From the IMG/VR virus record IMGVR_UViG_3300046321_000098, positions 18,012 to 82,011 of that record: a stretch of 64,000 bases of DNA; one strand, given 5' to 3'. Position 1 is the first letter of the stretch. Every line of letters begins with the position of its first letter. The DNA comes from a virus. This document shows, one piece after another, positions 15,603 to 62,117 of the stretch. The notes beneath the pieces were generated by a model that saw only the letters and a list, made by a program, of their open reading frames with translations, did no database searches and was not told the origin of the DNA. The position numbers were made by a program, and so were the translations under genes.

Positions 15603-16117
15603 TGGGTAAAGTTTTAACACAAGAGTACTTGAAAGAGATATTAGAGTATAATCCTGAGAGTGGATTGTTTATTTGGAAGGTGCGAAAGTCTCGCCGATCT
15701 GCCATCGGCTCTGGTGCAGGAACTAGAAGTAAGAAGGGGTACTTCAGTATTTCTATTGATTCAAAAGTTTACCGCAGTCATCGTTTAGCTTGGTTATACG
15801 TTTATGGAAAGTTCCCTGAGAACGGGATTGACCATATCAACGGAAATCCATCTGATAATTCGATACATAACTTACGGATTGCAAGTCAGCAGAGCAATAA
15901 TAAGAACGTAACAACAAGGTGCAACAATAGTTCTGGTTATAAGGGTGTGAGTTTTGATAAGAACACAGGTAAATGGAAAGCTCAGGCGCAAGTGAATGGT
16001 AAGAAAAAACATCTAGGGTTGTTTACAACTCCAGAAGAGGCTTCAGTGGTGTATAACGAGTATACAAAGGAGCACTTTAAAGAGTTCTATAGGAATACTA
16101 TAAATAAAGGAAAATAA
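15602..16117 (+). CDS. HNH homing endonuclease with AP2-like domain
   Basis: HRLAW, IDHINGNPSDN; SGYKGVS...KWKAQ...HLGLF. Confidence 0.9.
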   Translation: MGKVLTQEYLKEILEYNPESGLFIWKVRKSRRSAIGSGAGTRSKKGYFSISIDSKVYRSHRLAWLYVYGKFPENGIDHINGNPSDNSIHNLRIASQQSNNKNVTTRCNNSSGYKGVSFDKNTGKWKAQAQVNGKKKHLGLFTTPEEASVVYNEYTKEHFKEFYRNTINKGK

Positions 16118-19100
16118 TGATTTTAAACGGATGGTGCTTTGACTGTGAAGCAGATAATTTATACCTTCAAGCTAAGAAAATTTGGTACATCCGTCTTAAA
16201 TCCTTAGACGGAACCCGTAGCCTAGCACTGCACCCTTTCAGGTCTTCCAAGGATGAAATCTACAATCAATTTATGGAATGGGTGGACTCTTTTGAAGACG
16301 GTGCTCACGTTGTATTCTTTAACGGACTTGGTTATGACTTATGGCTTATTTGGAAACTGCTAGATATTCAACCTCGTGTTGGGAAGCAAGGTAAGGACTG
16401 GATTGAGGACAAGCACGTCCAATTCATCGACGGTTATGTGCTGAGCATGTACCTCAACCCAAACAACCCTAGGCACTCCCTAGGTGCCCTATCAGGTTCT
16501 GAAAGTGATGATGGTAAGATTGATTACCGTAACAGTCTAATCAAGGCTGGTGCGATGACGGGCTTAGAGCCAAAAGGTCACGAGTTCTCGTTCTACCACC
16601 CTCTCACAGAGCCGTACTGTGACCGAGACGTTGATGCTACCATTCGTGTTGTAAAAGACTTATGGAAGCAGGCTCAAGGTATGTACGGTGAATCATGGCT
16701 TCATCCTAGCTTTCGACAGATGCAAAAAGATTACTGGCTGTACAGCGCACAAGCCTACACTGGTGTCAAATTTGATATAAACAAGGCTAAGGAATTAGTC
16801 ATCCATATCGAACAAGAAATGAAGGTACTTAAAGACTACGTAGACCCGTTACTACCATCCAGACCACTGAAGACTGCTGAGTTGAGTTACTACAAGCAAC
16901 CAGCGAAGCCTTTCTCCAAGTCAGGTGAAATATCGTCAAGCATGGAGAAGTTCTTAGTTAAGCACAACGCAACATTAGTTGACCGAATCATTACAGCTTA
17001 TGGCGAGTCCGTGCCTGTTGAGTCCAACGCAGTTTTACCTGTTAAGCTTCCGATGGAAATTGACGACAACGTAGAATTGAAGCAATACTTCCTAGATAAC
17101 GGGTGGATACCTAGTGATGATTACTGGAATCATAAAAAAGGTACTGACGGTAAACCAGAGCGAGATGCGAACAATAAGTTTACTAGAACTACTCCTAAAA
17201 TCAATCACGCTGGAAAAATTTGCCCTAATTTACTAAAGCTTGATGGGGACGTGCCGAAGAAAGTTGTTAAGTTTCTAAGCTACCGAAACCGATTAGGTGT
17301 TGTCACTGGTTGGTTGAACAACTGGAGACTTGAGTTTGATGGTAGACTCAGTGCTGAGATTTCAGGCTATGCTCCAACCTCAAGGGTTAAGCATAAGTTA
17401 GTTGTCAATGTACCAAAGGCTGCAGATGATGTGTTGCTTGGTCACGAGATGAGGGAGTTATTCTGTGTAGATAAGGGTAACTGGTACATTGGAACAGACG
17501 CTTCTGCTCTTGAAAATCGTACCCTTGCTGGGTACACCTACAAGTACGACAACGGGGAGTTTGCAAGAGTTCAATTAGAGGGTGACCCACATTGCTACTC
17601 AGAAGATACTGAGATTTTAACACCTAATGGTTGGTCTACTTTTGGTAATCTAACTAAAGGGGAGAAGGTTGCACAGTGGGATAACGGTGAGATTTCATTT
17701 GTTAAGCCAAGCCGTGTTATCTGGCAAGATTACGAAGGAGAAATGGTAAGTCTATCAGGTATGGCTGTTGATTTCCTTGTCACACCTAATCATAGAGTAC
17801 TTGTAACAAACGTAAAAAGCGGGAAAAGCAAGGTAAAACTAGCACATACACTGCACAATCGAAACTCTAATTGGAGATTGCCCACTCACGGATTAACAAC
17901 CTCTAAGGGTCTAGAACTGTCGAACGATGAAATCAGATTTATTGTTGCTCTACAAGCTGACGGTAGTATGAGTAAAACTGCTTTCAGGTTCGAGTTTGTA
18001 AAAGATAGGAAAATAGTTAGGATGCGGAATATTCTGTGCAACTTAGGTATACCTTATACAGAGTCCACTGGTAAAAGTAATACAACTACTCGCTTTTACG
18101 TGAAGCATGTTGACGCAGGTTTTGTGTTCAAGGGTATAACTATTAATAAAGTATTCTCTAACTTGTTGCTAGGAATGTCTCTAATGCAGTGTGAGACCTT
18201 CATCGAGGAGATTAGGCACTGGGACGGTACTACACTGAGAAGTGGTGACACCGTTTTAGATACGACCTGCGAGGAGAGCTGTGACATGGTTGCAACTATT
18301 GCAGCCCTAGTGGGTAGAAAATCGCGCAGGTCTGTGTTTGACAAACGAGGTGGTTTTGGTGACTGTACAATTCATAGGTGTTATATCTCTAAGGACAGTT
18401 CTTCGATAGGTGCTGCTGTACTTGGAACAAGTATAAAAGCAGTTGAGTATAAGGGTAAGATTGGTTGTGTCAGTGTTCCAAGTACATTCGTGGTTGTGAG
18501 GAGGAATGGTAAAATTCTAATCTCTGGTAATACTTTCAATGCTTTTGCCTTCTTCCCTCACTTGTTGAAGAAGTTTGATACTGATAACCAAGAGAATAAA
18601 GAGAACCCTGAGTTCAAACCTTGGCGAAACAAGGCTAAGACTGGTGCATACCTACTAGCCTTTGGTGGTGGCGCACCTAAGCTTGCCTCAAGCCTCGGAT
18701 TATCTAAATCCGATGGTCAAGCTGCTTTTAATAACTACTGGGAGAAGAATAAAGGTCTTGGGTTACTGAAGAAAGCAGTAGAGGGTTACTACGACACTAC
18801 AGGGAATAAGAAATACATTCCTGCAATTGATGGTAGGATTGTTTCGGTACGAGGTAAAAATGTTTTACTATCCTGCCTTGGGCAAGGATGTGGAGCAATT
18901 GCTATGTCCTATGCAGGTTGCTTAATGGATAATTGGCTAGGAGACTTCTACCTCGACGAATTAGGCAGACCTTACTACGATGTTGATGGATACAAGATAA
19001 GACGTATATCCTTCTTCCACGACGAATATTCTTGGGAAGTTGAAGACGGCGCACAAGACAGGATTAGGGAGTTAAGTGTAAAAGGTATTGTTAAGGCTGG

Positions 19101-19179
19101 CGAAGTCCTAAAATTAGTATTACCATTAGCAGCAGAGGGTAAAATGGCTTTTGAAGGTACTTGGCAAAATGTGCATTAA
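16117..19179 (+). CDS. Family A DNA polymerase containing an intein
   Basis: Exo I DCEAD; motif A DASALENR; motif B RNKAKTGAY; motif C FHDEY. Confidence 0.93.
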   Translation: MILNGWCFDCEADNLYLQAKKIWYIRLKSLDGTRSLALHPFRSSKDEIYNQFMEWVDSFEDGAHVVFFNGLGYDLWLIWKLLDIQPRVGKQGKDWIEDKHVQFIDGYVLSMYLNPNNPRHSLGALSGSESDDGKIDYRNSLIKAGAMTGLEPKGHEFSFYHPLTEPYCDRDVDATIRVVKDLWKQAQGMYGESWLHPSFRQMQKDYWLYSAQAYTGVKFDINKAKELVIHIEQEMKVLKDYVDPLLPSRPLKTAELSYYKQPAKPFSKSGEISSSMEKFLVKHNATLVDRIITAYGESVPVESNAVLPVKLPMEIDDNVELKQYFLDNGWIPSDDYWNHKKGTDGKPERDANNKFTRTTPKINHAGKICPNLLKLDGDVPKKVVKFLSYRNRLGVVTGWLNNWRLEFDGRLSAEISGYAPTSRVKHKLVVNVPKAADDVLLGHEMRELFCVDKGNWYIGTDASALENRTLAGYTYKYDNGEFARVQLEGDPHCYSEDTEILTPNGWSTFGNLTKGEKVAQWDNGEISFVKPSRVIWQDYEGEMVSLSGMAVDFLVTPNHRVLVTNVKSGKSKVKLAHTLHNRNSNWRLPTHGLTTSKGLELSNDEIRFIVALQADGSMSKTAFRFEFVKDRKIVRMRNILCNLGIPYTESTGKSNTTTRFYVKHVDAGFVFKGITINKVFSNLLLGMSLMQCETFIEEIRHWDGTTLRSGDTVLDTTCEESCDMVATIAALVGRKSRRSVFDKRGGFGDCTIHRCYISKDSSSIGAAVLGTSIKAVEYKGKIGCVSVPSTFVVVRRNGKILISGNTFNAFAFFPHLLKKFDTDNQENKENPEFKPWRNKAKTGAYLLAFGGGAPKLASSLGLSKSDGQAAFNNYWEKNKGLGLLKKAVEGYYDTTGNKKYIPAIDGRIVSVRGKNVLLSCLGQGCGAIAMSYAGCLMDNWLGDFYLDELGRPYYDVDGYKIRRISFFHDEYSWEVEDGAQDRIRELSVKGIVKAGEVLKLVLPLAAEGKMAFEGTWQNVH
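17593..18531 (+). mobile_element. Intein (313 aa) with LAGLIDADG-like homing domain
   Basis: GDPH|CYSEDTEILT block A; VTPNHRV block B; ALQADG and RHWDG; ends ISGN|T. Confidence 0.9.
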
Positions 19180-51264: not shown

Positions 51265-52473
51265 CTACCCTAACCACTCCACAAATAGTTCCTTCATCCT
51301 CTTGCTCAAGAACGTAACATTCATAGGTTTACCATCTCTAATACAACCACGGAATAGCCACTGTATAGCCTGATTCAGTGCAAAGGCTTCTTCGTCAACA
51401 TCATAACCATAGCTATTCAAATAAGATTTAACTGTCACATTGTTAAAAATATTAAACGCATGAATAGCATAAGTCTTGTGAGCAAGCTCATTTGTAGCCC
51501 TCATATTACACGCAATCATGTTGTCGAAAGGAACATTCCTAGTCTTGATTTTAGAGAAGCTGCCCAATGGGATTGTAAAGAATATTTCTGATTTTGGAAC
51601 CTTCTGTGAAGTGTGTAAGGAGTTAATCAACTTTCTCACATCATCAGGGTTTACCCCATTAGACCTTACATTATTAGATTCCCACCAAGACGATGACAAG
51701 TTAAACCTTGTTTGCTTCTCTAGGAACTTCTTCACAGAAGGTGGTTCAACAAATTCTATCAACCCTTTTACTTTCTGTTTGTTTTCAGAATTAGATACCC
51801 TAAGCGGAATAACCAACGGCTTATGACTTATTTTGTGCAACTCAAGAAATGCTTGCATTATCGAGCCACTGAAGTTATACGTCAATAGAATAAACCTGTC
51901 AGCATTGAGCACTAAATCTGGAGACAGGTAAGTGACCAGCATGTTATTCGAGTTCTTTTCACCGTACAGACAACCTCTATCACATAGTCGTTTAATATCC
52001 CCATAGCGAGCTTCATCAGACATCTCTGTTTTCAAGAACGACATCCTCCCTAGGTTTTCAACATCCTTACTCAACATCTTTTCAGAGTAGAGGAAGTCAA
52101 TGTCCTGTTTACTGATCTTAAAAGCGTCTATAAGGTTAAGTTCTTCATCACAAATAATTTGATACTCTTGCAACTTTATTAAATCAATGTGTTCTTGCTT
52201 GAAGTGCAAGGTCAGAGCGTGGGTACAGGCGATGTTATACCCTTCCCTCAAGAACTCAAGAATCTGAGGTGCGAGTCTACCATCATCATCCTTAGCTGTA
52301 TAGAACACCATATCAACTCTATCTGATTCAAGTGCAACTCGCACATCTATTTCTTGCTTCATGGGGCTAAGGTACAGGTAGGGTTTACCTTGATTCTTTG
52401 CCATGTAGTCAAAGATACCGTGAGTCTTACCACTGCCGCATAAGGCATCTACTATTTCTATTTGTTTAGTCAT
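51265..52473 (-). CDS. SF2 helicase-like / origin-binding protein
   Basis: Walker A DALCGSGKT, Walker B IICDEE, QWLFRGCIRDG. Confidence 0.7.
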   Translation of the reverse strand: MTKQIEIVDALCGSGKTHGIFDYMAKNQGKPYLYLSPMKQEIDVRVALESDRVDMVFYTAKDDDGRLAPQILEFLREGYNIACTHALTLHFKQEHIDLIKLQEYQIICDEELNLIDAFKISKQDIDFLYSEKMLSKDVENLGRMSFLKTEMSDEARYGDIKRLCDRGCLYGEKNSNNMLVTYLSPDLVLNADRFILLTYNFSGSIMQAFLELHKISHKPLVIPLRVSNSENKQKVKGLIEFVEPPSVKKFLEKQTRFNLSSSWWESNNVRSNGVNPDDVRKLINSLHTSQKVPKSEIFFTIPLGSFSKIKTRNVPFDNMIACNMRATNELAHKTYAIHAFNIFNNVTVKSYLNSYGYDVDEEAFALNQAIQWLFRGCIRDGKPMNVTFLSKRMKELFVEWLG

Positions 52474-53201
52474 CCCTTCTCCATAATTCGTTCTTCAATC
52501 CTATTCTTAGCAACCTCAAAGTATTTATCATCCTTTTCAATACCGATAAAGTTTCTGTTTGTGTTGACACAGGCTATACCTGTTGTCCCTGAACCCATAC
52601 AATTATCTAGCACTGTGTCACCTTCATTTGTATAAGTCCTGATAAGATACTCCAGTAGTGCAACAGGTTTTTGCGTAGGATGTAAAGACTCTGTTTGTTT
52701 GTCGGACTGGAATTTCAAAACACTTCTAGGATACCTCTCAGTGCTACCACCTCCAGAGATGATAGAGGTCTTACCGTATATTTCCCCATCTCCATTACGT
52801 TTTGTATAGGTGTTAACTGGAGTTTGTCCTGTTAATTTTTGAGGGTTATAAGTTGGCAGCTTTCTATAAAACACTAGAATGTTTTCATGTGCCTTCATTG
52901 GTATTTTCTTAGCATTCAGGTGACCCGTTGCCGTGGTCTTTTCCCACACCCATTCATAGCGGAGTAATGGAAGATTGCTTGAACCAAGTACCTTGTCAAA
53001 GGGTGTTTGAGCATGAAGGACAATAGCAGCGTTTTCTTTTGCGACTCTAAGGTACTGCTCCCAAAGCGACTCAAGGGGAAGAGGGGTATCCCATTTACAA
53101 TTGGTAGTACCATACAGTAAGTCACACAGAACCAAATCCACACTCCCATCGGGAATACTCTTCATAAGTTCCAAACAATCACCGTGTTTTAAATCAATCA
53201 T
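52470..53201 (-). CDS. N6A/N4C DNA methyltransferase (beta class), catalytic motif reads DLLY
   Basis: GDCLELM, CDLLYG, HPTQKP, VLDNCMGSGTTG. Confidence 0.88.
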   Translation of the reverse strand: MIDLKHGDCLELMKSIPDGSVDLVLCDLLYGTTNCKWDTPLPLESLWEQYLRVAKENAAIVLHAQTPFDKVLGSSNLPLLRYEWVWEKTTATGHLNAKKIPMKAHENILVFYRKLPTYNPQKLTGQTPVNTYTKRNGDGEIYGKTSIISGGGSTERYPRSVLKFQSDKQTESLHPTQKPVALLEYLIRTYTNEGDTVLDNCMGSGTTGIACVNTNRNFIGIEKDDKYFEVAKNRIEERIMEKG

Positions 53202-53451
53202 GTTTTTCCTCCATAACTAAATCAATTCCTGTTCTAACGCACTCACAATCCACAGGTACAAAGACCTTGATTGTAAATCCATCCCCTCCACCTCGAATAC
53301 TAGCATTATCAAGTATCCAATCAAGTCTATCTCTGTCTCTTTGAAGTTCTTCTAATAGGTCAGCAGCTTCTGAGAATGTGCTAGAAGCCTCATCAGCGTG
53401 TCCTGCGTGAGCTTGTCGCAGTTCTTTTATCAGTTCAGGTGCATCAGTCAT
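53194..53451 (-). CDS. Hypothetical protein
   Basis: Start MTDAPE; DRDRLDW. Confidence 0.55.
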   Translation of the reverse strand: MTDAPELIKELRQAHAGHADEASSTFSEAADLLEELQRDRDRLDWILDNASIRGGGDGFTIKVFVPVDCECVRTGIDLVMEEKHD

Positions 53452-53455
53452 TCTG

Positions 53456-53605
53456 TTATCTCCCCATCCACATAATATCAATTGCTACCTCACGGACGAC
53501 ATCACCAGTAACCTTATCCTCAAACTTGCGAAGTAAAGATAGCTCAAGCTCTAAATCCTTGATATACTGGGTTGTGCCTATTGGTAAGACTTCAAAATCT
53601 TGCAT
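53456..53605 (-). CDS. Small hypothetical protein (49 aa)
   Basis: AAAAGGAG RBS; translated by hand. Confidence 0.55.
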   Translation of the reverse strand: MQDFEVLPIGTTQYIKDLELELSLLRKFEDKVTGDVVREVAIDIMWMGR

Positions 53606-53695
53606 ATCTAACTCCTTTTTGTTTAACATTCCTGAATTATAATCTAAATTCTATTAATTACATTTGTTTTTATGTAGTAATTTGTAAAATAAACG

Positions 53696-53728
53696 TAAAA
53701 ATACCCCAAAGGCTTTCACCAGTGGGGT
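53696..53728 (-). terminator. Terminator after the ClpP-like gene
   Basis: ACCCCA...TGGGGT-ATTTT on the minus strand. Confidence 0.7.
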
Positions 53729-53733
53729 GGGGT

Positions 53734-54474
53734 TTATTTCTTCGTAACTTTCTTAGCTTTTGTTGACTTAACCGCTAACTTTTCAACTTTAGCAATATCA
53801 GCTTGGATTTTCTTTTGTTGAACTTCTTGGTACTTTGCTCTAGCTTCAAGGCGTTGAATAATCTCATCCGAGTCAAAGTAGAAGTCCCTCCCAATTTTAA
53901 GCTCTTTAATCTCTTGTTCACTAAGGAAACCCTCATACAGTTCACTTGTCAGCTTATCTAGCATTTTCTCAGAGTAACGAGCCATTGAGAATATCTCACC
54001 CTCTTTACCTCCAAACTCAAAGCTGCACGAATGCAACATCATGCTACTGTTCTTAGTAACAACTACTTGTGGAGCTTGTAAGAATATCATCGCTGCGGCT
54101 GATGCAAGCAACCCTGCACCAATGACTACTACATTACCTTCACAATCTTGAATAGCTTGGATAATTCGTTGAGCAGCATCTAGTCTGCCTCCTGAACTGT
54201 CAACATAAATAGCCATCTCATCGTCTTTACTCATGTGCCCCATGCAGTGAAACAAGTCCCTGTAGTAAGCTGGTGCTTGAATATTTGAATCAAGGTGGTA
54301 TTCGTAGTCATTACAGCAGATTCGGCGGTGGTAAATACCTGACCGTGAAACCCTCATATTATCCTCAAAGTCGTCTAACTCATCACCGCCTTCTTCGTCT
54401 GCTCTAGTCTTGCGTTTACCGCCTAGGTTGAAAGTAGGCTTGGTTGGATTCTTGCTGTGGTTTTTATATTGCAT
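53734..54474 (-). CDS. ClpP-like serine protease
   Basis: DSSGG, ASAAAMIF, MMLH. Confidence 0.82.
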   Translation of the reverse strand: MQYKNHSKNPTKPTFNLGGKRKTRADEEGGDELDDFEDNMRVSRSGIYHRRICCNDYEYHLDSNIQAPAYYRDLFHCMGHMSKDDEMAIYVDSSGGRLDAAQRIIQAIQDCEGNVVVIGAGLLASAAAMIFLQAPQVVVTKNSSMMLHSCSFEFGGKEGEIFSMARYSEKMLDKLTSELYEGFLSEQEIKELKIGRDFYFDSDEIIQRLEARAKYQEVQQKKIQADIAKVEKLAVKSTKAKKVTKK

Positions 54475-54490
54475 TTATTTGTTTCCCCTT

Positions 54491-55240
54491 CTAGTTACTG
54501 TACGCCTTGATTACAACCTTAACAAATTCACTACGCTGTACGTCTTCTACATCAAACTGATGATAAGCACAGTTAGGATATTTCGCTACCATATCACCAT
54601 CGTAGTCCTTAAAGAACCGAGGTATCAAATCCCTGAGAGCATTACGTCCCTTGGAGTTCGCATACATCTGTGAATTGTCACCACAGACTACAACCTTAGA
54701 GTCCAATCCTACACGCTCAAGAAGGAGTTTAAGAATCAGTGGAGACATTTGTTGTGCTTCATCAATAAGAAGCAAGGTATTGTCCAAGGTAGCTCCAAGC
54801 ATGAAGTTAGGAATCTTAAAGTGAATCCTATGATTCAAATCAGTCTCAACCTTACCTTTAGTCAATAACTGCTCTAGAAGATTCTTTGTACTCTCAAAAT
54901 GAGGCTCAAGCTTAGAGTTCAGATCAGAAGGTAAAAACCCTACATCATCCAGTCCAGCTTGCACAGGTGTACGTACAATCATAATCTGCTTTGTACTATC
55001 TGCAATGTACTCTTTTACAAAACTATACAGGACACTAAGGGACTTTCCTGTTCCAGCGGGAGCTTCACACACTACCAAGTCATTCTCAATAATCTTATTT
55101 CTAAGGGTATTCTGTGATTCTGTTAGTGTAAAATTATGAATCCCGTAAGCTTCTTGCCACTGTTGTTTAGGTATTGACTTGACTCCGCGAGTAAAAGACT
55201 CTTCTTTGTCTTTACGTGCAAACTTTGATTTTTGTTTCAT
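54491..55240 (-). CDS. phoH: PhoH-family ATPase
   Basis: APAGTGKS, VGFLP, IDEAQQ, VVCGDNSQ, DVQRS. Confidence 0.92.
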   Translation of the reverse strand: MKQKSKFARKDKEESFTRGVKSIPKQQWQEAYGIHNFTLTESQNTLRNKIIENDLVVCEAPAGTGKSLSVLYSFVKEYIADSTKQIMIVRTPVQAGLDDVGFLPSDLNSKLEPHFESTKNLLEQLLTKGKVETDLNHRIHFKIPNFMLGATLDNTLLLIDEAQQMSPLILKLLLERVGLDSKVVVCGDNSQMYANSKGRNALRDLIPRFFKDYDGDMVAKYPNCAYHQFDVEDVQRSEFVKVVIKAYSN

Positions 55241-55261
55241 ATTCCCTTTCAGATTTAAAAA

Positions 55262-55740
55262 TAAAAAAGCCCATAGAATACTACAGGCTCAATGCAACCA
55301 AGGGAAGGTTGCTAACTGGATTAGCAGCAAGAACTACTAATCTGCTTTCTAATAAAGAAGCAAGGTGCTGCCCTCAGACTTAACAGCATGTTAGACTAAG
55401 CCACTCAGGAAGGAATCTTTCACTTCCCTTCCATATTTGCTCCAACTTTGCTCACGATGGAGCTGGTCTACCGCACCCCGCAGCCACATTCAAAACACCG
55501 ACTGTTAATCTGCCGATACTAGGGCGGAAAAAGAAAGACCCCGAGAGCACAGTTCAATTTGCTATCGAGGCCTAGGCAGTCTGTTAGAAACTACGACACC
55601 ATTTTTTTAAAATGGTTGAAAGCAACACCAACCGCGCTAACGATTGGTGCAACTGGAGGTTAAAGTGGGTCTACCGAACCAGATCGACGCACTCTACCTT
55701 TAATTAGGGTTTGTCAAGTATATAATTCCCTAACTTTGGG
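55262..55740 (-). ncRNA. Long structured leader/ncRNA upstream of phoH, ending in a terminator
   Basis: About nine hairpins; G-U pairs favour the minus strand; AGCCTGTAG-TATT-CTATGGGCT-TTTTT. Confidence 0.55.
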
Positions 55741-55759
55741 TTCTCAAATCCCCTGTTAT

Positions 55760-56035
55760 TTACTTCTGCCTCTTTCGTCCGTCTACTTTTTCCACTTTTA
55801 CAGGTGTTTCGACAGCTTCTGTAACCGAAGTAGGTACAGCCTCTGCTGCTGAATCAGCTTGAGCAGGAAACATTGTAAGCAAGTGCAGACTACCCAGTAC
55901 CTGCGGAGAACCGAGGTTAGTATTCAAATCCAATTTATAACCATCATGCACAGCTTGTACAACTAATGGGAGCATTTCTATAAGGGACATTGTGGCGATA
56001 CTTAACGTACCATCCTGATTGACTGTTATTGCCAT
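55760..56035 (-). CDS. Hypothetical protein
   Basis: Downstream of a strong promoter; AAGGT RBS. Confidence 0.6.
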   Translation of the reverse strand: MAITVNQDGTLSIATMSLIEMLPLVVQAVHDGYKLDLNTNLGSPQVLGSLHLLTMFPAQADSAAEAVPTSVTEAVETPVKVEKVDGRKRQK

Positions 56036-56068
56036 TTAAGACCTTTCTTATTTGTTTACGAAAACTCT

Positions 56069-56096
56069 ATTATAGCATAATATTTTGGATTGTCAA
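56069..56096 (-). promoter_or_regulatory. Sigma70-like promoter
   Basis: TTGACA-16-TATAAT with TG extension. Confidence 0.75.
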
Positions 56097-56315
56097 GTCT
56101 AAAGTGCCCCTAGGAAATTATAAAAACGAAGGGGTAAATCCACATTTAGAACACCATAGACTAAAGCTAAAAGAAAATGCCCAAGCCAGTTGCTAGCCCT
56201 GAACAAGATGGGTAACAATTATTTATGTCATTTTTCAGTTTAATATTAAAACGAAAAAAACCAAATCATGTTAAAAATATAATAGGGACTAGGAAAAATA
56301 GATGCTGGTAAATAT

Positions 56316-56645
56316 TCATACTTCCACCTCGTAGATACGAGGCGCAGCGTCTAGCCATTGTTTGAAAAACGAATAGGCTTCTACATCTAACTGAAGTACT
56401 TTTCCCTCTGAGTCCCAAACGCGCAGTTTGTTGTTAGCAGTAACCCATGTGCGGGTGTGTACTTTCTTTGTCTCAGGTTTGATCTTAAAAGAATCAGGGT
56501 GAGCTATAACAGTAGTCATTAACGCTTTCAGAGTACCGTCCATGCCAGAATAGCAACCACTAAAGTGGTGCACTGTCGGTTGTAAGGTTTTACCATCGAG
56601 GTAAGCCTTAATCAACTCCACGATTTTATCATTTTTGTTTTGCAT
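56316..56645 (-). CDS. Hypothetical protein
   Basis: AAGGAG RBS. Confidence 0.6.
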   Translation of the reverse strand: MQNKNDKIVELIKAYLDGKTLQPTVHHFSGCYSGMDGTLKALMTTVIAHPDSFKIKPETKKVHTRTWVTANNKLRVWDSEGKVLQLDVEAYSFFKQWLDAAPRIYEVEV

Positions 56646-56809
56646 TATTTAGCTCCTTTACGTTTAACTTGCACAGCGTACAACCACTTGCTGCCAAGCT
56701 GCTGAACTGATTTAACCCACTCAGATTGGTTTCTTTGATTCAACTCCTCTGATGCGTAAGGGCTGTTAAAGATTACCTTAGCGCGTTCTTTTAGTTTTTG
56801 CTCTGTCAT
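56645..56809 (-). CDS. Small conserved phage protein (54 aa)
   Basis: Translated by hand: WVKSVQQLGSKWL; AAAAGGAG RBS. Confidence 0.6.
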   Translation of the reverse strand: MTEQKLKERAKVIFNSPYASEELNQRNQSEWVKSVQQLGSKWLYAVQVKRKGAK

Positions 56810-56872
56810 ATTGTTACTCCTTTTTGTTTAGATGCTTGTATTATACCAGAAAAAGCAGCTATTACTGCGTTG

Positions 56873-57058
56873 TTACAAAGATTTACTTGTCCCTTTGACT
56901 CTAAAATTCTCACAATGCTCAACTTTAATATAATCCATCAAATCAGGAATACTGAGCCGATTTGACACCAGCGCCCAAGAACCATCTGAAAGTCTAACTT
57001 CAAGGTCTTGACCACTGCAGACAGCTTTGAGTAGTTTCCTAAGTTCTAAGTCCTTCAT
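56873..57058 (-). CDS. Hypothetical protein
   Basis: Resembles the 56316 ORF. Confidence 0.5.
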   Translation of the reverse strand: MKDLELRKLLKAVCSGQDLEVRLSDGSWALVSNRLSIPDLMDYIKVEHCENFRVKGTSKSL

Positions 57059-57059
57059 A

Positions 57060-57512
57060 TTAAACTCTATAAAGTAGTTTACCTAGGAACAACTTAGCCT
57101 TATTCCACCAAGCTAACTCTAAAGACTCATCAGGTTGTGATTGAGGTATTGTCACAAGGTCATCCTTATCGAACCTGATTTCAATATCCATTGGGGCATA
57201 ACTCTCGTAAACTTCGGGAAACCCGCCGCGCTCGGCAATAGTAACGGCTACGTGTTGATCACCTGCTGAAGTAGTATTTTCAAGTTCAACTGATTCCTCG
57301 TAAATCTCGTACCAAAACTCAGAACCATCAGATTCCTCTGGTGTGGTATCCCATGTAAAATTATCAGCAATAACATTGTAAATAGTTGTGTCAATGTGTC
57401 TTGAATAGCGTGTACTCCGTTCCGCAATAAGTGCAGCCAAAAGGTCGGGGCAATTCAAAGTAAGCAAGTGCTCGTAGATTGCTTGTTTTTGTTTAATAGT
57501 TAATTTTTTCAT
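57060..57512 (-). CDS. Hypothetical protein
   Basis: AAGGAG RBS; FTWDTTPE...FW. Confidence 0.6.
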   Translation of the reverse strand: MKKLTIKQKQAIYEHLLTLNCPDLLAALIAERSTRYSRHIDTTIYNVIADNFTWDTTPEESDGSEFWYEIYEESVELENTTSAGDQHVAVTIAERGGFPEVYESYAPMDIEIRFDKDDLVTIPQSQPDESLELAWWNKAKLFLGKLLYRV

Positions 57513-57575
57513 GTTTATTTCTCCTTTGTCGTTGATGATGGTATTGTACACTAGATTTCTATACTGTGCTGGACT

Positions 57576-57767
57576 TTACAAATTATTACGTACTGCTTCA
57601 ACCAGTGTTTCAACACCTGCCTTACAAATACGACATGAAACGATATGGTGCTCTAACAGGTGTTTATTTATTAACAGATAATCCTTAGCATACTTAATCT
57701 CTAACTCAATCTCATTAATTGCATCTTTTAACCCCATCAAGTAGTATTTCTTTTGTTCTGGTGTCAT
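57576..57767 (-). CDS. Hypothetical protein
   Basis: Coupled ORF. Confidence 0.5.
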   Translation of the reverse strand: MTPEQKKYYLMGLKDAINEIELEIKYAKDYLLINKHLLEHHIVSCRICKAGVETLVEAVRNNL

Positions 57768-57943
57768 ACTTCCTCCGCTAAATCATTAATTTTACGCAGT
57801 CGGCTATTTGCAAGTTCGAGGTCTCCTCTTAGTGCTTGTATTTCATAAACCGCATAGTTAGCCCAATTAACAAGAGTTCTCAAATCCTCATCGTCATAAT
57901 TGTTGGGGTTTAGTTCCCTATAGGTGGTCAGCAAATCATTCAT
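57764..57943 (-). CDS. Hypothetical protein
   Basis: ELNPNNYD motif. Confidence 0.55.
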   Translation of the reverse strand: MNDLLTTYRELNPNNYDDEDLRTLVNWANYAVYEIQALRGDLELANSRLRKINDLAEEV

Positions 57944-58142
57944 GTTTCTCACCTTCGTTTGAAAAAAGAGCGATACATCCTGTGAAAACGAACAAAATAA
58001 ATTGGGCAGTTGCTTGACTATTAGAAGAAGAGTTAATAAAAGAAACACCTGTAAGTCCAAACAACACAAGGTCAAGAGACATTACCCAGAACACACCTGC
58101 ACAAATCAAGTACCAAAGTTTGTATTTTTTAAAGATGGTCAT
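57936..58142 (-). CDS. Two-TM membrane protein
   Basis: Two hydrophobic segments. Confidence 0.5.
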   Translation of the reverse strand: MTIFKKYKLWYLICAGVFWVMSLDLVLFGLTGVSFINSSSNSQATAQFILFVFTGCIALFSNEGEKHE

Positions 58143-58360
58143 TTCAAAAGACTCTCCACTAATTCTTCTTTTGTTGCAAACATCTCAGCTTCACGTAACC
58201 AAACAGTCCCTAAGTGGTAAGTAGCTCCAACATCACACTCATCGAACACAAAAGACCGTGCATTTGAAATCTGGTCTTTATACACCCTTGCTTGTACTTT
58301 GCCTGATGCTATTTTATCTAAGTGCATAAACCACACTTCTTGTTCTAGTTTGTATTTCAT
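58139..58360 (-). CDS. Hypothetical protein
   Basis: FATKEEL..SL C-terminus. Confidence 0.55.
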   Translation of the reverse strand: MKYKLEQEVWFMHLDKIASGKVQARVYKDQISNARSFVFDECDVGATYHLGTVWLREAEMFATKEELVESLLK

Positions 58361-58587
58361 AATCTCTCCCTTTCCTCATAAATCCGTTGTTCAATCTCTT
58401 GCCACTGCCTAGAGGATAAGTGCCGTAGAAGCTCCAGTGTACCGTTACCTAGTTTAACTTCCTCTAGTTGGACAACGGCTTGCTCAGGTGGCTCTATATC
58501 TGTCGCTGGTACAGAGGGTTCATAGTAGTAAGAACACTCTAATTCGAGATCTAGGAAGCCCCCTAGGGGTATTGTTATCATATTCAT
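58357..58587 (-). CDS. Hypothetical protein
   Basis: Coupled ORF. Confidence 0.55.
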   Translation of the reverse strand: MNMITIPLGGFLDLELECSYYYEPSVPATDIEPPEQAVVQLEEVKLGNGTLELLRHLSSRQWQEIEQRIYEERERL

Positions 58588-59177
58588 AACTGTCCATCCT
58601 GTTTTCCATGACGTTCTGTGTAGGCTGCACCTAATAGCTTTAAATTAGCCATTTCAAGCTCACGCCTAGCAACAGCAGCAGCTAATGCTGCTTCTAGTGT
58701 AAGCCACTCACGGATACCAAAGTAGGCATAACAACGATTACCGTTTATATCACACCAGTAAGCCTCATAACCCCTGATTGCATCATACTTATTACGCATA
58801 GCTTTCACACCAGTAGGTAGGTCAGTATCACGTCTGTTTTGCTTTGACATGTTCTGGTGATTAACTTTGTTAGTCACATCTCTAAGGTTTTCAATCTTGT
58901 TATTAGAAGGATTACCGTCAATGTGGTCTATGTGGTTATCAGGGAACTTACCGTAGGTTACGAACCAGACTAGACGGTGTGATCTGAAGTTGCCCCCGTT
59001 TATCCTGATTTCGATGTAACCATCTTTGGTTAGATAACCAGCCTTACTTCCAGCTCTGACTCTAGATCGAAGAGAAGGTCGCACTCTCCAATAAAACACA
59101 CTCTCTGGTAACCTCAACTCCAGTAATGCTTCCACCTGCTCTAATGTAAGAGCCAATTCTTTTTTACTTGCAACCAC
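58584..59177 (-). CDS. HNH homing endonuclease, paralog of the 36585 ORF
   Basis: SHRLVW, IDHIDGNPSNN; near-identical termini SKKELALT and LGAAYT.RHG. Confidence 0.88.
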   Translation of the reverse strand: MVASKKELALTLEQVEALLELRLPESVFYWRVRPSLRSRVRAGSKAGYLTKDGYIEIRINGGNFRSHRLVWFVTYGKFPDNHIDHIDGNPSNNKIENLRDVTNKVNHQNMSKQNRRDTDLPTGVKAMRNKYDAIRGYEAYWCDINGNRCYAYFGIREWLTLEAALAAAVARRELEMANLKLLGAAYTERHGKQDGQL

Positions 59178-59188
59178 TTCTGTTTCCT

Positions 59189-59500
59189 TTAGTGCAAACT
59201 ATCTTCTACGCGGAAATATAATTCCTCGCCACTATCGAGACTGAATAATCTAAACTCCGTCAAATCCAAAGCAGCAATAATCCGTATAGCAATTTCAAAC
59301 GTACTGTATCTGCCCAACTCTCTTGGTTCACAAGCCGCCCCACTTGGTACAATAACAACAACTTGTTCATTAGACGGTGTAAAGCTGTCCATACTGCCAA
59401 CAGTGAACAATCGTGCAACTTTTTGTTCGCTGGTAAAACGTGATTGGTTAGCTGGCATGTGTGCTTCGTTTAGTGCAGGTTCAGGGTGTAATTGATTCAT
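59189..59500 (-). CDS. Hypothetical protein
   Basis: Promoter-RBS cassette upstream. Confidence 0.55.
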   Translation of the reverse strand: MNQLHPEPALNEAHMPANQSRFTSEQKVARLFTVGSMDSFTPSNEQVVVIVPSGAACEPRELGRYSTFEIAIRIIAALDLTEFRLFSLDSGEELYFRVEDSLH

Positions 59501-59574
59501 AAGATACTCCTTTTGTTAAAAACTTAATTATAGCACTCACCTATTAAAAAGCAAGTGCTGTTACACAATGTTAC

Positions 59575-59889
59575 TTAGGGCGTTAATGCCAACTCATCCA
59601 CCAAGGGTGCATCTGTTTCAGTTTCCTCATCATCGTTCAAAGGCTGAATAGGGCTTAACCAAGAATCAGGTATGTAACCCTCGGTAGCTTTACCATACAT
59701 TGTCTTTATATTACCAGAAACAAGCCAGAAATCATCTGTGTCTATGGCTGCCCAAGCTTCACCGTGGATAATTATCTTATCCCCACGGTTATAGTGCCCT
59801 ACATGCTTAACACAAGTTACAATCTTACCAATGTTCTCTTTTCTTATGGCTTTCCTAATAAAAGCTAAGTCGCCTAGTTTGCATTTCAT
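59575..59889 (-). CDS. Conserved phage hypothetical protein
   Basis: CKLGDLA...N.GKIV...IPDSWLSPI. Confidence 0.6.
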   Translation of the reverse strand: MKCKLGDLAFIRKAIRKENIGKIVTCVKHVGHYNRGDKIIIHGEAWAAIDTDDFWLVSGNIKTMYGKATEGYIPDSWLSPIQPLNDDEETETDAPLVDELALTP

Positions 59890-59985
59890 TTATTACCCCC
59901 TTTTTTTTTCTGCATATAAAACCGAAGTTTAGCACAGATTCGAAGTAAAAACAAGTAATATTTAAGATATTTAGTGGTATTTCAC

Positions 59986-60014
59986 TTGCTTTTTAGGTAA
60001 TTTTGTGTTACAAT
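59986..60014 (+). promoter_or_regulatory. Sigma70-like promoter
   Basis: TTGCTT-17-TACAAT with TG extension. Confidence 0.6.
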
Positions 60015-60059
60015 TATTCTAATACAGAGAATATTAACTGATTCTAAGTTTTAACTTTT

Positions 60060-60359
60060 GAGCAACATCGCTCTACTGTAAAAAGACTCTTCGGTGAGTG
60101 GCTCTGACTAAGCTATGCATGGTTCGTCAACGAGGAATGTCTCGCTGTGTTGACGTAGACAGGGGGGATGGGCGGCTTAGAACGAGCCTCGTAATGCAGT
60201 AGCCTTAATTGGACGATTTCAAAGAACTTAAATGTTTTCTACTTCAATCATATAAGTAGAGGGGGGTTGAGCTGACAGACCATGAGCTACTTAACAACTA
60301 GCATCTGTAACTGCAAGATAGCCTAAATGATATTTATCTTTATTTCTTTATAGTTGCTC
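60060..60359 (+). ncRNA. Large structured RNA of unknown family
   Basis: Nested helices closed by GAGCAAC/GTTGCTC; G-U pairs favour the plus strand; no long ORF. Confidence 0.6.
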
Positions 60360-60433
60360 TTTATTGGGCACAGGGGATGGGGGGAGTATCGTTCAAAGAT
60401 ATAACTACGTCTGTACGATTTAAAAGGTAATTT

Positions 60434-60628
60434 ATGAAAGTTTGTAGCTGTGGTGGTGTAATCACGCCACGAATGGTCAAAGAGGGTACTGTATGGCACT
60501 GCCCTTCGTGCGGGAGATATGAAGTGCTAAGTTATAAGGACGCTCTTAGTACCTTAGATGTAGTTTTCAATACAGGTAAGAACGAAAAAACCCTAAAAGA
60601 GTCTTTAATGGGCTTATCTATATGTTAG
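60434..60628 (+). CDS. Small Zn-ribbon protein
   Basis: CSCG...WHCPSCG. Confidence 0.6.
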   Translation: MKVCSCGGVITPRMVKEGTVWHCPSCGRYEVLSYKDALSTLDVVFNTGKNEKTLKESLMGLSIC

Positions 60629-60741
60629 CCAGTATCCGTCAAATCAATGCAGCCCAAGTAATCATCTTGGGTGCAGTACTAATAATGCTTTCTGCAGTCC
60701 TTATGACCGTCCTTTTAACTCAGTACGCACCTCAGACATAG
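60622..60741 (+). CDS. 39-aa single-TM peptide
   Basis: Translated by hand: VIILGAVLIMLSAVLMTVLL. Confidence 0.4.
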   Translation: MLASIRQINAAQVIILGAVLIMLSAVLMTVLLTQYAPQT

Positions 60742-60818
60742 TGCATGGCTTAGTAGCTATTAAAGCTCCTGTAAACTTGTTTAAACACTCTAATAGACAC
60801 AAGAAAAACCCCTACAGC

Positions 60819-61307
60819 ATGGAAATACAAAGATTAAATGAACTTCTAGTCTACGAGCCATTGACAGGTGAGATATTTACTAGGCTTCCGTTTCGTAAAA
60901 TGTGCCCTGATTCGGAGAACTTTATTGTTGTTTGGGATAAAGTACAACAGAAAAGAACAAAGTTCAAGGTTGATCGCCTTGCATGGCAGCTAGGTAATAA
61001 CAAAAGGCTGAGGAAAAATCAACGAGTTCTGCATAAGAATCTAAACACTGACGACAACAGACTTGTAAACCTAAGCACAGTATCGCTTAGTATTTTCAGT
61101 AAGATAAATGAAGCAGCACGGAATCTCAAAGGAGAACTTAGGGTTCTTCCACATGAAAAAGACCAATATGATTTTTGTGTGCATTATTTTGAGAATAAAC
61201 TTAAAAGAGCAGAAAGATTTAGTGATATTGTGTTTGCTCAAAAGAGGCTACTTGTGCTACAATTGAAGTTCGCTAAGGTTTTGACAAAATATTGTCTATT
61301 TGAATAA
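60819..61307 (+). CDS. Divergent HNH-family protein
   Basis: YEPLTGEIF, RLAW, VLHKNLNTDDNRLVNL. Confidence 0.65.
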   Translation: MEIQRLNELLVYEPLTGEIFTRLPFRKMCPDSENFIVVWDKVQQKRTKFKVDRLAWQLGNNKRLRKNQRVLHKNLNTDDNRLVNLSTVSLSIFSKINEAARNLKGELRVLPHEKDQYDFCVHYFENKLKRAERFSDIVFAQKRLLVLQLKFAKVLTKYCLFE

Positions 61308-61318
61308 AGGAGTGTTAA

Positions 61319-61510
61319 ATGAAAATTAAGAATTTAATTGAGTTGTTGAGTAAGTTAAACCCAGAGGCTGAAATCAAGATAGGAGGATGGAAAGAGCAGA
61401 ATAACATCTCTCGTTACACCTGGGACAGTGAAAGCCTACAGGAGAAACACATTCACTTCTGTCGAGATAAAGATGAGAAGTTAACTGTTCACTTGGAGTT
61501 TGATATATGA
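61319..61510 (+). CDS. Hypothetical protein, tandem paralog
   Basis: LIELLSKLNPEAEI. Confidence 0.55.
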   Translation: MKIKNLIELLSKLNPEAEIKIGGWKEQNNISRYTWDSESLQEKHIHFCRDKDEKLTVHLEFDI

Positions 61511-61695
61511 CAGTTCACGAACTTATAGAGTACCTTTCAGGATGCAAACCTGATGCTGTTGTTTTTATACCCGTTATAAAAAATTACAACGAAATAGAGC
61601 TAAAACCACTAGGGTATGTAGACATTGATACATTCAATGGAAAAACCTATTGTTACCCTTACGAGGCAGATAGATTAGAAATTAACTTAACCTAA
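61507..61695 (+). CDS. Hypothetical protein, tandem paralog
   Basis: LIEYLSGCKPDAVV. Confidence 0.55.
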   Translation: MTVHELIEYLSGCKPDAVVFIPVIKNYNEIELKPLGYVDIDTFNGKTYCYPYEADRLEINLT

Positions 61696-61706
61696 TTGTA
61701 TTTCCC

Positions 61707-61735
61707 TTGACTTTATTGTAACTTTATGATACAAT
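61707..61735 (+). promoter_or_regulatory. Sigma70-like promoter
   Basis: TTGACT-17-TACAAT. Confidence 0.7.
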
Positions 61736-61934
61736 AGATTATCAAGCAAATTTAAACAAGGCGAGTTAAGTAAATGCGGTAAGGACTAATTCCACCGTCT
61801 CTGACTTTAAGTGCAACTTTATATCCTCTGCTTGATAATAATCCGCTTGCAATTTTTACTCTCCTTTTAATTGAACAAGCTGCAGGATTCGGTAACCTGC
61901 CTAAACTATGCTCCCCTTATAATAATAAAAACAA

Positions 61935-62117
61935 ATGGCTAAATGTGAATTTTGCAATACGAACTTCTCCTCTGCTCTACCAGTCTGCACAAGTGCCTGT
62001 AGATTTTGTAGTTTTCCAGAGGCGATACCAGATCAAGCGTTAAAAGAAGAATTTGGAAGCCTCTTTAATCCAACAGGTGTTACTCAGGTTCCAAAATACG
62101 AAGATTTTGAAGAATAG
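61935..62117 (+). CDS. Small Cys-rich protein
   Basis: CEFC...CRFC. Confidence 0.5.
   Translation: MAKCEFCNTNFSSALPVCTSACRFCSFPEAIPDQALKEEFGSLFNPTGVTQVPKYEDFEE

Follow-up and report, generated by a model that had tools for sequence, protein, structure and literature searches.

What occupies the 544-bp gap (59890–60433) that separates a leftward 104-amino-acid (aa) gene from a rightward gene set in the virus record IMGVR_UViG_3300046321_000098? We examined bases 18012–82011 of this 82,011-base IMG/VR record, which carries terminal repeats; this 64,000-nt stretch is hereafter the window, and all 24 of the 24 public runs holding it are freshwater metagenomes. We tentatively favor the reading, for which we would claim somewhat less than even confidence, that 60021–60433 is a cis-acting 5′ untranslated leader of the operon headed by a zinc-ribbon gene, based on its position, its non-coding nature, a conserved core, a 3′ piece linked to the gene, and the structured leaders found upstream of homologous genes. 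Transcription from the promoter at 59986, any RNA structure and any regulatory effect are what we infer within this reading. Taken alone, the window stretch is an ordinary, uncharacterized phage 5′ leader for which the evidence of function is modest, and its importance is that it led to an RNA with a U-run hairpin and a pseudoknotted domain, unmatched in Rfam 15, at 45 of 59 phage loci.

Position, coding status and conservation of the leader

The leader heads an operon composed of the zinc-ribbon gene, a hydrophobic 39-aa peptide and a weak HNH_3-like gene (Table 1), as had been recognized in an earlier annotation of the window made without database searches (the sequence-only reading). That annotation had also described a promoter-driven RNA, which held in part: a plausible promoter is visible upstream, with a predicted transcript start near 60021, ~410 nt before the ATG, but our consensus promoter scan did not call the TTGCTT-17-TACAAT site. 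The string at this site, TGTGTTACAAT, had 4 matches in the window (≤1 mismatch) vs. 2.6 expected.

The region is non-coding, as had been claimed. A PHROG search of the 3 open reading frames (ORFs) inside the leader returned 0 matches, and ARAGORN identified no tRNA and no tmRNA in the region. A 17-codon ORF at 60377–60430, with its ATG inside G-run block 3 and its stop 3 nt ahead of the zinc-ribbon ATG, was rejected as a gene because two relatives lack one base at 60400, which would shift its frame. GC content was 0.42–0.46 over 60000–60300, compared with 0.29–0.31 in the adjoining promoter region. That no RNA family had been recognized here also agreed with our Rfam 15 search at the gathering threshold, which gave 3 matches in the whole window, all of them tRNA and 0 in the leader region. 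The sole hit at E ≤ 10 in 59850–60700 was to RsaOG (59915–60025, − strand, 17.7 bits vs. a gathering threshold of 50, E 5.5), and we regard it as meaningless.

Relatives of the stretch were sought in several collections. No second copy of the leader was found in the 82-kb genome (best other matches 13 nt), and a “distant” blastn search with 551 nt and a megablast search with 12 kb gave 0 matches in 50,697 phage records. The 104-aa protein had no tblastn match among the phage records, and 6 Lak phage records returned by tblastn of the zinc-ribbon protein (E 0.08) were rejected as noise. Exact 18–20-mers of the region occurred 0 times in IMG/VR, in JGI metagenome contigs and in GTDB genomes, collections that may omit the window record and its near kin. 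Scans with the 104-aa protein or its alignment found 1 and 3 distant loci, in other contexts, in IMG/VR viral contigs, none in JGI metagenome contigs and none in GTDB genomes; a DNA search of these four distant loci yielded one 14-nt match, which we ascribe to chance.

We then compared the leader with contigs of four of the 24 public runs (X13, X19, X20 and X24) at 80% likeness, the contigs being short and of depth 2–8. A near-identical strain contig covered 59575–60142 with 5 differences, and diverged contigs contributed pieces at 60129–60189, 60132–60183, 60124–60158 (in a 726-nt contig otherwise unlike the window), 60131–60278 (17 differences, 3 gaps), 60220–60307, 60329–60367, 60367–60721 and, twice, 60379–60427. 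The core at 60124–60190 displayed ~87–94% identity in contigs whose flanks drop below 80%, with zero differences listed among the relative contigs at 60133–60162. The 3′ piece, 60379–60427, differed at 4 positions and by 1 gap over its 49 nt. In both contigs the flank after 60427 opens on an ATG and resembles the N-terminal sequence of a 54-aa zinc-ribbon relative, P0024; this piece therefore moves together with the gene.

If the leader reading is correct, the TTGCTT-17-TACAAT promoter at 59986–60014 would drive transcription of the ~410-nt leader together with the rightward operon, and the leader would probably act in cis on operon expression, through translation or RNA stability. The zinc-ribbon protein could possibly feed back on its own leader, and the likely working parts would be the core at 60124–60190 and the piece at 60379–60427 beside the ribosome-binding site.

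Table 1. Leader, proposed pairings, G-run blocks and flanking genes, in window coordinates; pair probabilities refer to the ensemble of the whole leader.
Feature	Position	Strand	Remarks
Predicted ~410-nt untranslated leader	60021–60433	+	no coding signal; no Rfam match; fold z −0.10
Promoter-like site TTGCTT (59986) - 17 nt - TACAAT (60009), TG extended −10	59986–60014	+	read from sequence
Conserved core	60124–60190	+	kept in 4 diverged contigs of two other lake metagenomes (records 2, 3, 14, 15)
Conserved 3′ leader piece	60379–60427	+	records 9 and 17, two other runs; different zinc-ribbon allele downstream; flanks unlike
Imperfect 130-nt nested inverted repeat (P1–P4)	60073–60202	+	sole part folding better than shuffles
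Closing helix GAGCAAC / GTTGCTC	60060 / 60353	+	pair probability 0.00
Helix CTACTGTA / TGCAGTAG	60073 / 60195	+	one G-U; within P1–P3, probability 0.07–0.36
Helix GGCTC / GAGCC	60100 / 60184	+	within P1–P3, probability 0.07–0.36
Helix CTAAGCT / GGCTTAG	60108 / 60174	+	one G-U; within P1–P3, probability 0.07–0.36
P4 CGTCAAC / GTTGACG	60125 / 60149	+	pair probability 0.03
Hairpin TCTACTT (60238) / AAGTAGA (60254), 7 bp	60238–60260	+	best-predicted helix, probability 0.79–0.97
P6 AAGATA / TATCTT	60315 / 60335	+	pair probability 0.00
Crossing pairing CATGGT / ACCATG	60118 / 60279	+	pair probability 0.09–0.16
Alternative pairing GACGTAG / CTACGTC	60152 / 60405	+	pair probability 0.00
G-run block 1 ACAGGGGGGATGGG	60159–60172	+	G-run at 60162; ACAGGGG at 60159; interrupted in relatives
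G-run block 2 AGAGGGGGGTTGAG	60258–60271	+	G-run at 60261
G-run block 3 ACAGGGGATGGGGGG	60370–60384	+	G-run at 60379; ACAGGGG at 60370
104-aa gene, phrog_2529 (unknown function)	59575–59889	−	left border of gap, divergent; 10 relatives, 55–70% identity
64-aa zinc-ribbon protein (CxC...CxxC)	60434–60628	+	first in rightward operon
Hydrophobic 39-aa peptide	60622–60741	+	~22-residue hydrophobic run; no PHROG match
162-aa HNH_3-like protein	60819–61307	+	Pfam HNH_3 18.9 bits (cut-off 24.8); phrog_99 E 5.5e-8

A structured leader upstream of homologous zinc-ribbon genes

The gene downstream of the leader belongs to a family of small proteins. A word-based search with the zinc-ribbon protein retrieved only itself, while a full HMMER search retrieved 18 proteins (E ≤ 0.001), 9 of which were small (47–79 aa) and carried the motif MxxCxCGG...W.C..CGRYE; the window protein has the same motif, and its best IMG/VR relatives are 45% identical to it. 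In a profile search of the PDB it matched ribosomal zinc ribbons only, non-significantly (E at least 0.039), and its structure neighbors in the Atlas were generic zinc ribbons (TM 0.44–0.52). Scanning IMG/VR with the zinc-ribbon alignment led us to 59 loci, 45 of which share a ~420-nt leader that ends at the zinc-ribbon start (among L008–L066, e.g., L026:2078–2500). In eight homologous loci, where ORF translations were read by eye, divergent regions were common, with small genes leftward and, rightward, genes that included one for a RusA-like protein.

By eye, the promoter of this IMG/VR leader family reads TTGACA - 15 nt - TATAAT with TGTG before the −10, and its 15-nt spacer is the reason that the promoter scan does not call it. 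The 5′ domain is one long hairpin ending in a U-run, which in L026 reaches −76.5 vs. −43.4 ± 4.1 kcal/mol (z −8.0). For the 3′ domain, RNAalifold gave 34 pairs, of which 12 show compensatory changes. Across 36 distinct sequences, 98.9% of cells were paired vs. 89.3% when shuffled, 114 cells had changed on both sides vs. 30.5, and the covariation score was 0.290 vs. 0.104, values attained by 0 of 500 shuffles in each case; sliding the 3′ partner by 1–3 columns lowered pairing to 32–50%. The alignment tested here had been fitted to our covariance model of the 3′ domain (R1, 234 positions) and leans toward structure, and an independent MAFFT alignment gave the same helices.

The 3′ domain also holds a pseudoknot that is absent from the model, in which the three nucleotides immediately 5′ of TAGAG in the TGGGC loop pair with a triplet located 2–3 nt ahead of the TGCG box. 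Of 35 distinct sequences, 34 retain it, compared with 7.5 of 35 when triplets were permuted among sequences, and it occurs as seven types (GGA/TCC, GAA/TTC, CCT/AGG, TCC/GGA, TGC/GCA, TCT/AGA and CCC/GGG). Rfam gave no match to the family leader at gathering (10 loci) and none at E ≤ 10 (L026 leader). On a limited literature search the ~420-nt leader looks like an undescribed RNA family, although the 8,495 IMG/VR candidates of 29–151 nt listed in PMC10690425 may already include pieces of either leader.

In the family leader we also observed a direct repeat, made of the 10 nt that follow GGCTCC and the 10 nt that follow TCACC, whose copies change in step between phages and are identical at 8–9 of 10 positions in 27 of the 29 sequences with both anchors. 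The TCACC copy adjoins or overlaps the ribosome-binding site (A4 columns ~189–200 and 269–279; L026:2254–2499), and the repeat may be a decoy, or the two copies may be alternative partners of one strand. The window has a 15-nt direct repeat of its own (60210–60224 / 60412–60426, 13 of 15 identical), one copy in mid-leader and the other just 5′ of the ribosome-binding site, which recalls that of the family and could be chance; a tandem-repeat search of the region found none.

Folding, sequence changes and comparison with the family

Several of our results weigh against the leader reading, and we consider them together here, beginning with the fold. The sequence-only reading had drawn a nested, pseudoknotted structure from nine string pairs plus the G-runs, and every one of these strings is present to within 1 nt. 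Watson-Crick complementary 6-mer pairs in 60060–60420 numbered 25 vs. 14.6 ± 5.0 after dinucleotide shuffling (25 was reached in 19 of 500 shuffles), with 7 vs. 3.6 ± 2.4 for 7-mers (56 of 500) and 0 vs. 1.0 for 8-mers, so the excess of complementary strings over chance is only slight. The minimum free energy (MFE) of 60040–60435 on the + strand was −96.0 vs. −97.6 ± 5.8 kcal/mol (z +0.27), with 58 of 100 shuffles as good, and z against dinucleotide shuffles was −0.10 for 60021–60433 and −0.04 for 60060–60360; the − strand of the leader gave −1.19. The inverted repeat at 60073–60202, with limits chosen post hoc once the helices were known, reached z −2.19 on the + strand (2 of 150 shuffles) and −3.31 on the − strand (1 of 150), thus folding at least as well on the latter.

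With the leader as a whole at shuffle level, most helices at a pair probability of ≤0.36, and the closing helix, P4, P6 and the alternative pairing at ≤0.03, the nested pseudoknotted fold was not borne out: the strings exist, but folding better than shuffled sequence is confined to 60073–60202 and is modest there. The fold as drawn is not the evidence on which we base the leader reading. The suggestion of a new phage non-coding RNA survives insofar as the region is non-coding, lacks an Rfam family and is partly conserved in lake phages, but the specific fold is unsupported.

Changes in the relatives point the same way. In X13 record 4, 60256 is G>T and 60257 is T>C with 60241 and 60242 unchanged though covered, which leaves 2 of the 7 pairs of the hairpin at 60238–60260 broken and uncompensated; for the other helices, the relative contigs cover one arm only. 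In the near relative X20 record 16, 1 substitution and 4 single-base indels fall in the last 67 leader nt, compared with 6 substitutions and 0 indels in the 288 coding nt that follow, from which we concluded that this end of the leader is constrained no tighter than the gene. In the one RNA library compared (X24, a freshwater metatranscriptome), contigs lay at 61040–61310 only, although uncovered parts are not evidence and contigs cannot show RNA ends. Two X24 contigs, at a depth of ~15 and with 4 and 1 differences, cover the 3′ portion of the gene for the HNH-like protein, and DNA carry-over as their source cannot be excluded.

Chance-level folding, the low probabilities of most proposed helices, the uncompensated changes that one relative has in the best-predicted hairpin, and the several indels in the last 67 nt would all fit a promoter-bearing spacer without RNA-structure function. 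Such a spacer would lie in a mosaic region with many mobile HNH genes, with HNH-type genes on both sides (58584–59177 and 60819–61307), and its patchy conservation, seen in short pieces from contigs of depth 2–8, would reflect recent shared descent and recombination among related lake phages, not selection. We hold this to be rather unlikely; it is opposed by the identity of the core at 60124–60190 (~87–94% where flanks are <80%), by a GC content above that of neighboring non-coding DNA, and by the structured leader that is usual before homologous genes.

The homologous loci themselves do not all favor a leader. Fourteen of the 59 (L012, L013, L015, L016, L018–L022, L025, L040, L041, L058 and L063) lack a long one, with the gene 62–114 nt past, or overlapping, the upstream ORF (gaps −4 to 114 nt), indicating that the zinc-ribbon gene needs no long leader. 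The window leader is like the IMG/VR family in standing directly upstream of a zinc-ribbon homologue behind a sigma-70-like promoter, and in its similar length; family promoters have a TGTG extended −10, and the family often lies in a divergent intergenic region. The family, however, has a stable U-run hairpin and a covariation-supported, pseudoknotted 3′ domain, and the window leader has neither, its fold being at shuffle level where the 5′ domain of the family reaches z −8.0. Model R1, which detects the 45 of 59 loci at E 4e-27 to 1e-89, found no match in the 64-kb window at E ≤ 0.01, nor any at E ≤ 1 when the full 82-kb genome was searched, and with filters off over 59000–62000 its best leader match was 19 nt long (2.2 bits, E 0.47). 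A family profile gave no nhmmer match in the window at E ≤ 10 and, with all filters off, none on the leader at E ≤ 1000, while Smith-Waterman comparison of the window leader with 12 family members gave z −1.05 to +1.68. Since no covariance, profile or Smith-Waterman match was found, the analogy between the two leaders is one of position only. A direct search of the window leader against the 59 loci likewise gave no nhmmer match at E ≤ 10 and a best blastn match of E 0.021, in the promoter region.

We therefore weighed whether the window leader could be a very diverged member of the IMG/VR family. The position is shared, the lengths are comparable (~410 vs. ~420 nt), and by eye CAGGGG..TGGGC..TAGA..GAGCC at 60160–60188 resembles CAGGGG.GG.TGGGC...TAGAGCC of the family. 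The covariance model, the profile hidden Markov model at maximum sensitivity and Smith-Waterman alignment were nevertheless all at noise, and by inspection the window forms neither the 3–4-bp helix closing the TGGGC...TAGAG loop nor the pseudoknot triplet, having TGGGCGGCTTAGA but no complementary triplet at the anchored position. Membership is thus highly improbable in our view.

A broader proposal is that the zinc-ribbon family travels with a long structured leader, of which the window would hold a second, sequence-unrelated class, with the protein binding the leader to control read-through or translation. We think this unlikely, though if it is true, lake phages would carry a new regulatory module made of an RNA and a protein. 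Were the window leader a functional analogue, two unrelated RNAs would serve the same small nucleic-acid-binding protein gene, pointing to a leader-protein feedback or antitermination circuit. The lambda nutL/N leader and HK022 put RNA are long leaders of early phage operons that act in autoregulation or antitermination, and the window resembles them in that a divergent control region places a promoter-proximal non-coding RNA stretch ahead of an operon's first small gene. Unlike in those systems, we identified neither a boxA/boxB-like element nor a two-hairpin element of the put type in the leader, nor any terminator on which it could act.

G-runs, HNH-like genes and the surrounding genome

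The three G-run blocks raised the possibility of a role at the DNA level. A degenerate G-run motif has 3 matches in the window vs. 0.21 expected, 3 of the window's 13 GGGGGG runs fall in the leader, and so do two of the genome's top 15 G4Hunter peaks. Block 3 is the genome's second-highest peak, and the MFE structure pairs it with a U-rich tract at 60327–60350. The G-run cluster is real but modest. In relatives, block 1 carries G>C at 60163 (two contigs) and G>A at 60164 (three contigs).

ColE1 RNA II and T4 origins are R-loop primers of DNA synthesis, and the leader is like them in that a promoter is followed by a G-rich non-template strand at a skew switch. A control region or replication origin where the transcription arms diverge, at which the transcript from 59986 would form an R-loop and prime synthesis, could account for the cumulative GC skew minimum at 59800–59999, the AT-rich block (GC 0.285) followed by a G-over-C skew of +0.18 to +0.28, the three G-run blocks spaced 99 and 110 bp with 2 of the 15 strongest genome G4Hunter peaks, and the palindrome-like behavior of 60073–60202, whose − strand folds no worse than its + strand (z −3.31). 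The skew switch is confounded, however, coinciding with a switch in gene orientation: between 85 and ~42800 the long ORFs are on the + strand, and between 51265 and 59889 they are on the − strand. The G-run repeats are only 77–85% alike, with spacing unlike that of iterons, and no replication-initiator gene was identified adjoining the leader. The R-loop primer idea had been put forward in the sequence-only reading, and while the G-runs are present as described, it is weakened by the interruption of the first of them in three relative contigs (60163 G>C, 60164 G>A). Unlike in ColE1 RNA II and T4 origins, the G-run is not conserved in relatives, and we consider this explanation quite unlikely.

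A third, weaker copy of the motif, ACAGGGG..TG.G, was noted at 55743–55756 on the − strand, at the border of the extended non-coding region that precedes phoH; in a blastn comparison, that region and the leader region shared no further similarity.

The RNA had also been proposed as a ribonucleoprotein partner of the HNH-like protein. This recalls HEARO / IscB omega-RNA, an HNH endonuclease-associated RNA with its own Rfam family, in that a structured RNA of a few hundred nt would lie beside an ORF with an HNH domain. The window differs from HEARO in having no Rfam match at gathering or at E ≤ 10 and in having two genes between the leader and the HNH gene, and its 162-aa HNH_3/AP2-type remnant differs from IscB in its sub-threshold HNH_3 match and lack of a RuvC match. 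Aligned to the intact HNH protein of 58584–59177, the HNH_3-like protein has Asp at the first His of the motif. With no HEARO match in Rfam and only this remnant for a partner, the HNH partnership found no support, and of that interpretation as a whole it is the non-coding, operon-heading region that stands, not the partnership or the nested pseudoknotted fold. In the eight homologous zinc-ribbon loci, ORF translations read by eye revealed no obvious HNH gene in any.

More generally, the region could give rise to a free-standing, trans-acting stable RNA, for example a partner of the HNH-like or the zinc-ribbon protein. Its length and composition suit a structured RNA, and since it lacks a known family it could represent an unknown class. 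A terminator scan of 59400–62000, however, called 4 terminator-like sites, 0 of them within 60021–60433, and there is thus no predicted 3′ end. The AT-rich AAGATA/TATCTT stem with its U-rich tail was not called, and no intrinsic terminator of the kind that marks a terminator-based attenuator or riboswitch was called inside the leader. The absence of a HEARO or other Rfam match, the missing first His of the HNH-like protein, and the leader's lack of RNA cover in the single library compared also count against a trans-acting RNA, making it very unlikely.

HNH_3-type genes lie on either side of the leader on opposite strands, the left one (58584–59177) being intact (Pfam E 1.1e-13). The HNH_3-like gene at 60819–61307 has an alternative GTG start at 60741 that overlaps the stop of the preceding gene, and two small ORFs come after it in the rightward set.

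Elsewhere, the 41-kb IMG/VR contig L006 is the only IMG/VR relative found for a 402-aa gene (72% identity); it has no leader, and other genes stand where the window has 52473–59889. Lastly, in the 1020-aa DNA polymerase encoded at 16117–19179, polymerase PHROGs match residues 7–495 and 820–1020, and the PHROGs hit by residues ~486–816 bear the labels ribonucleotide reductase, PhoH and thymidylate synthase, a pattern that would fit an intein or other insert.

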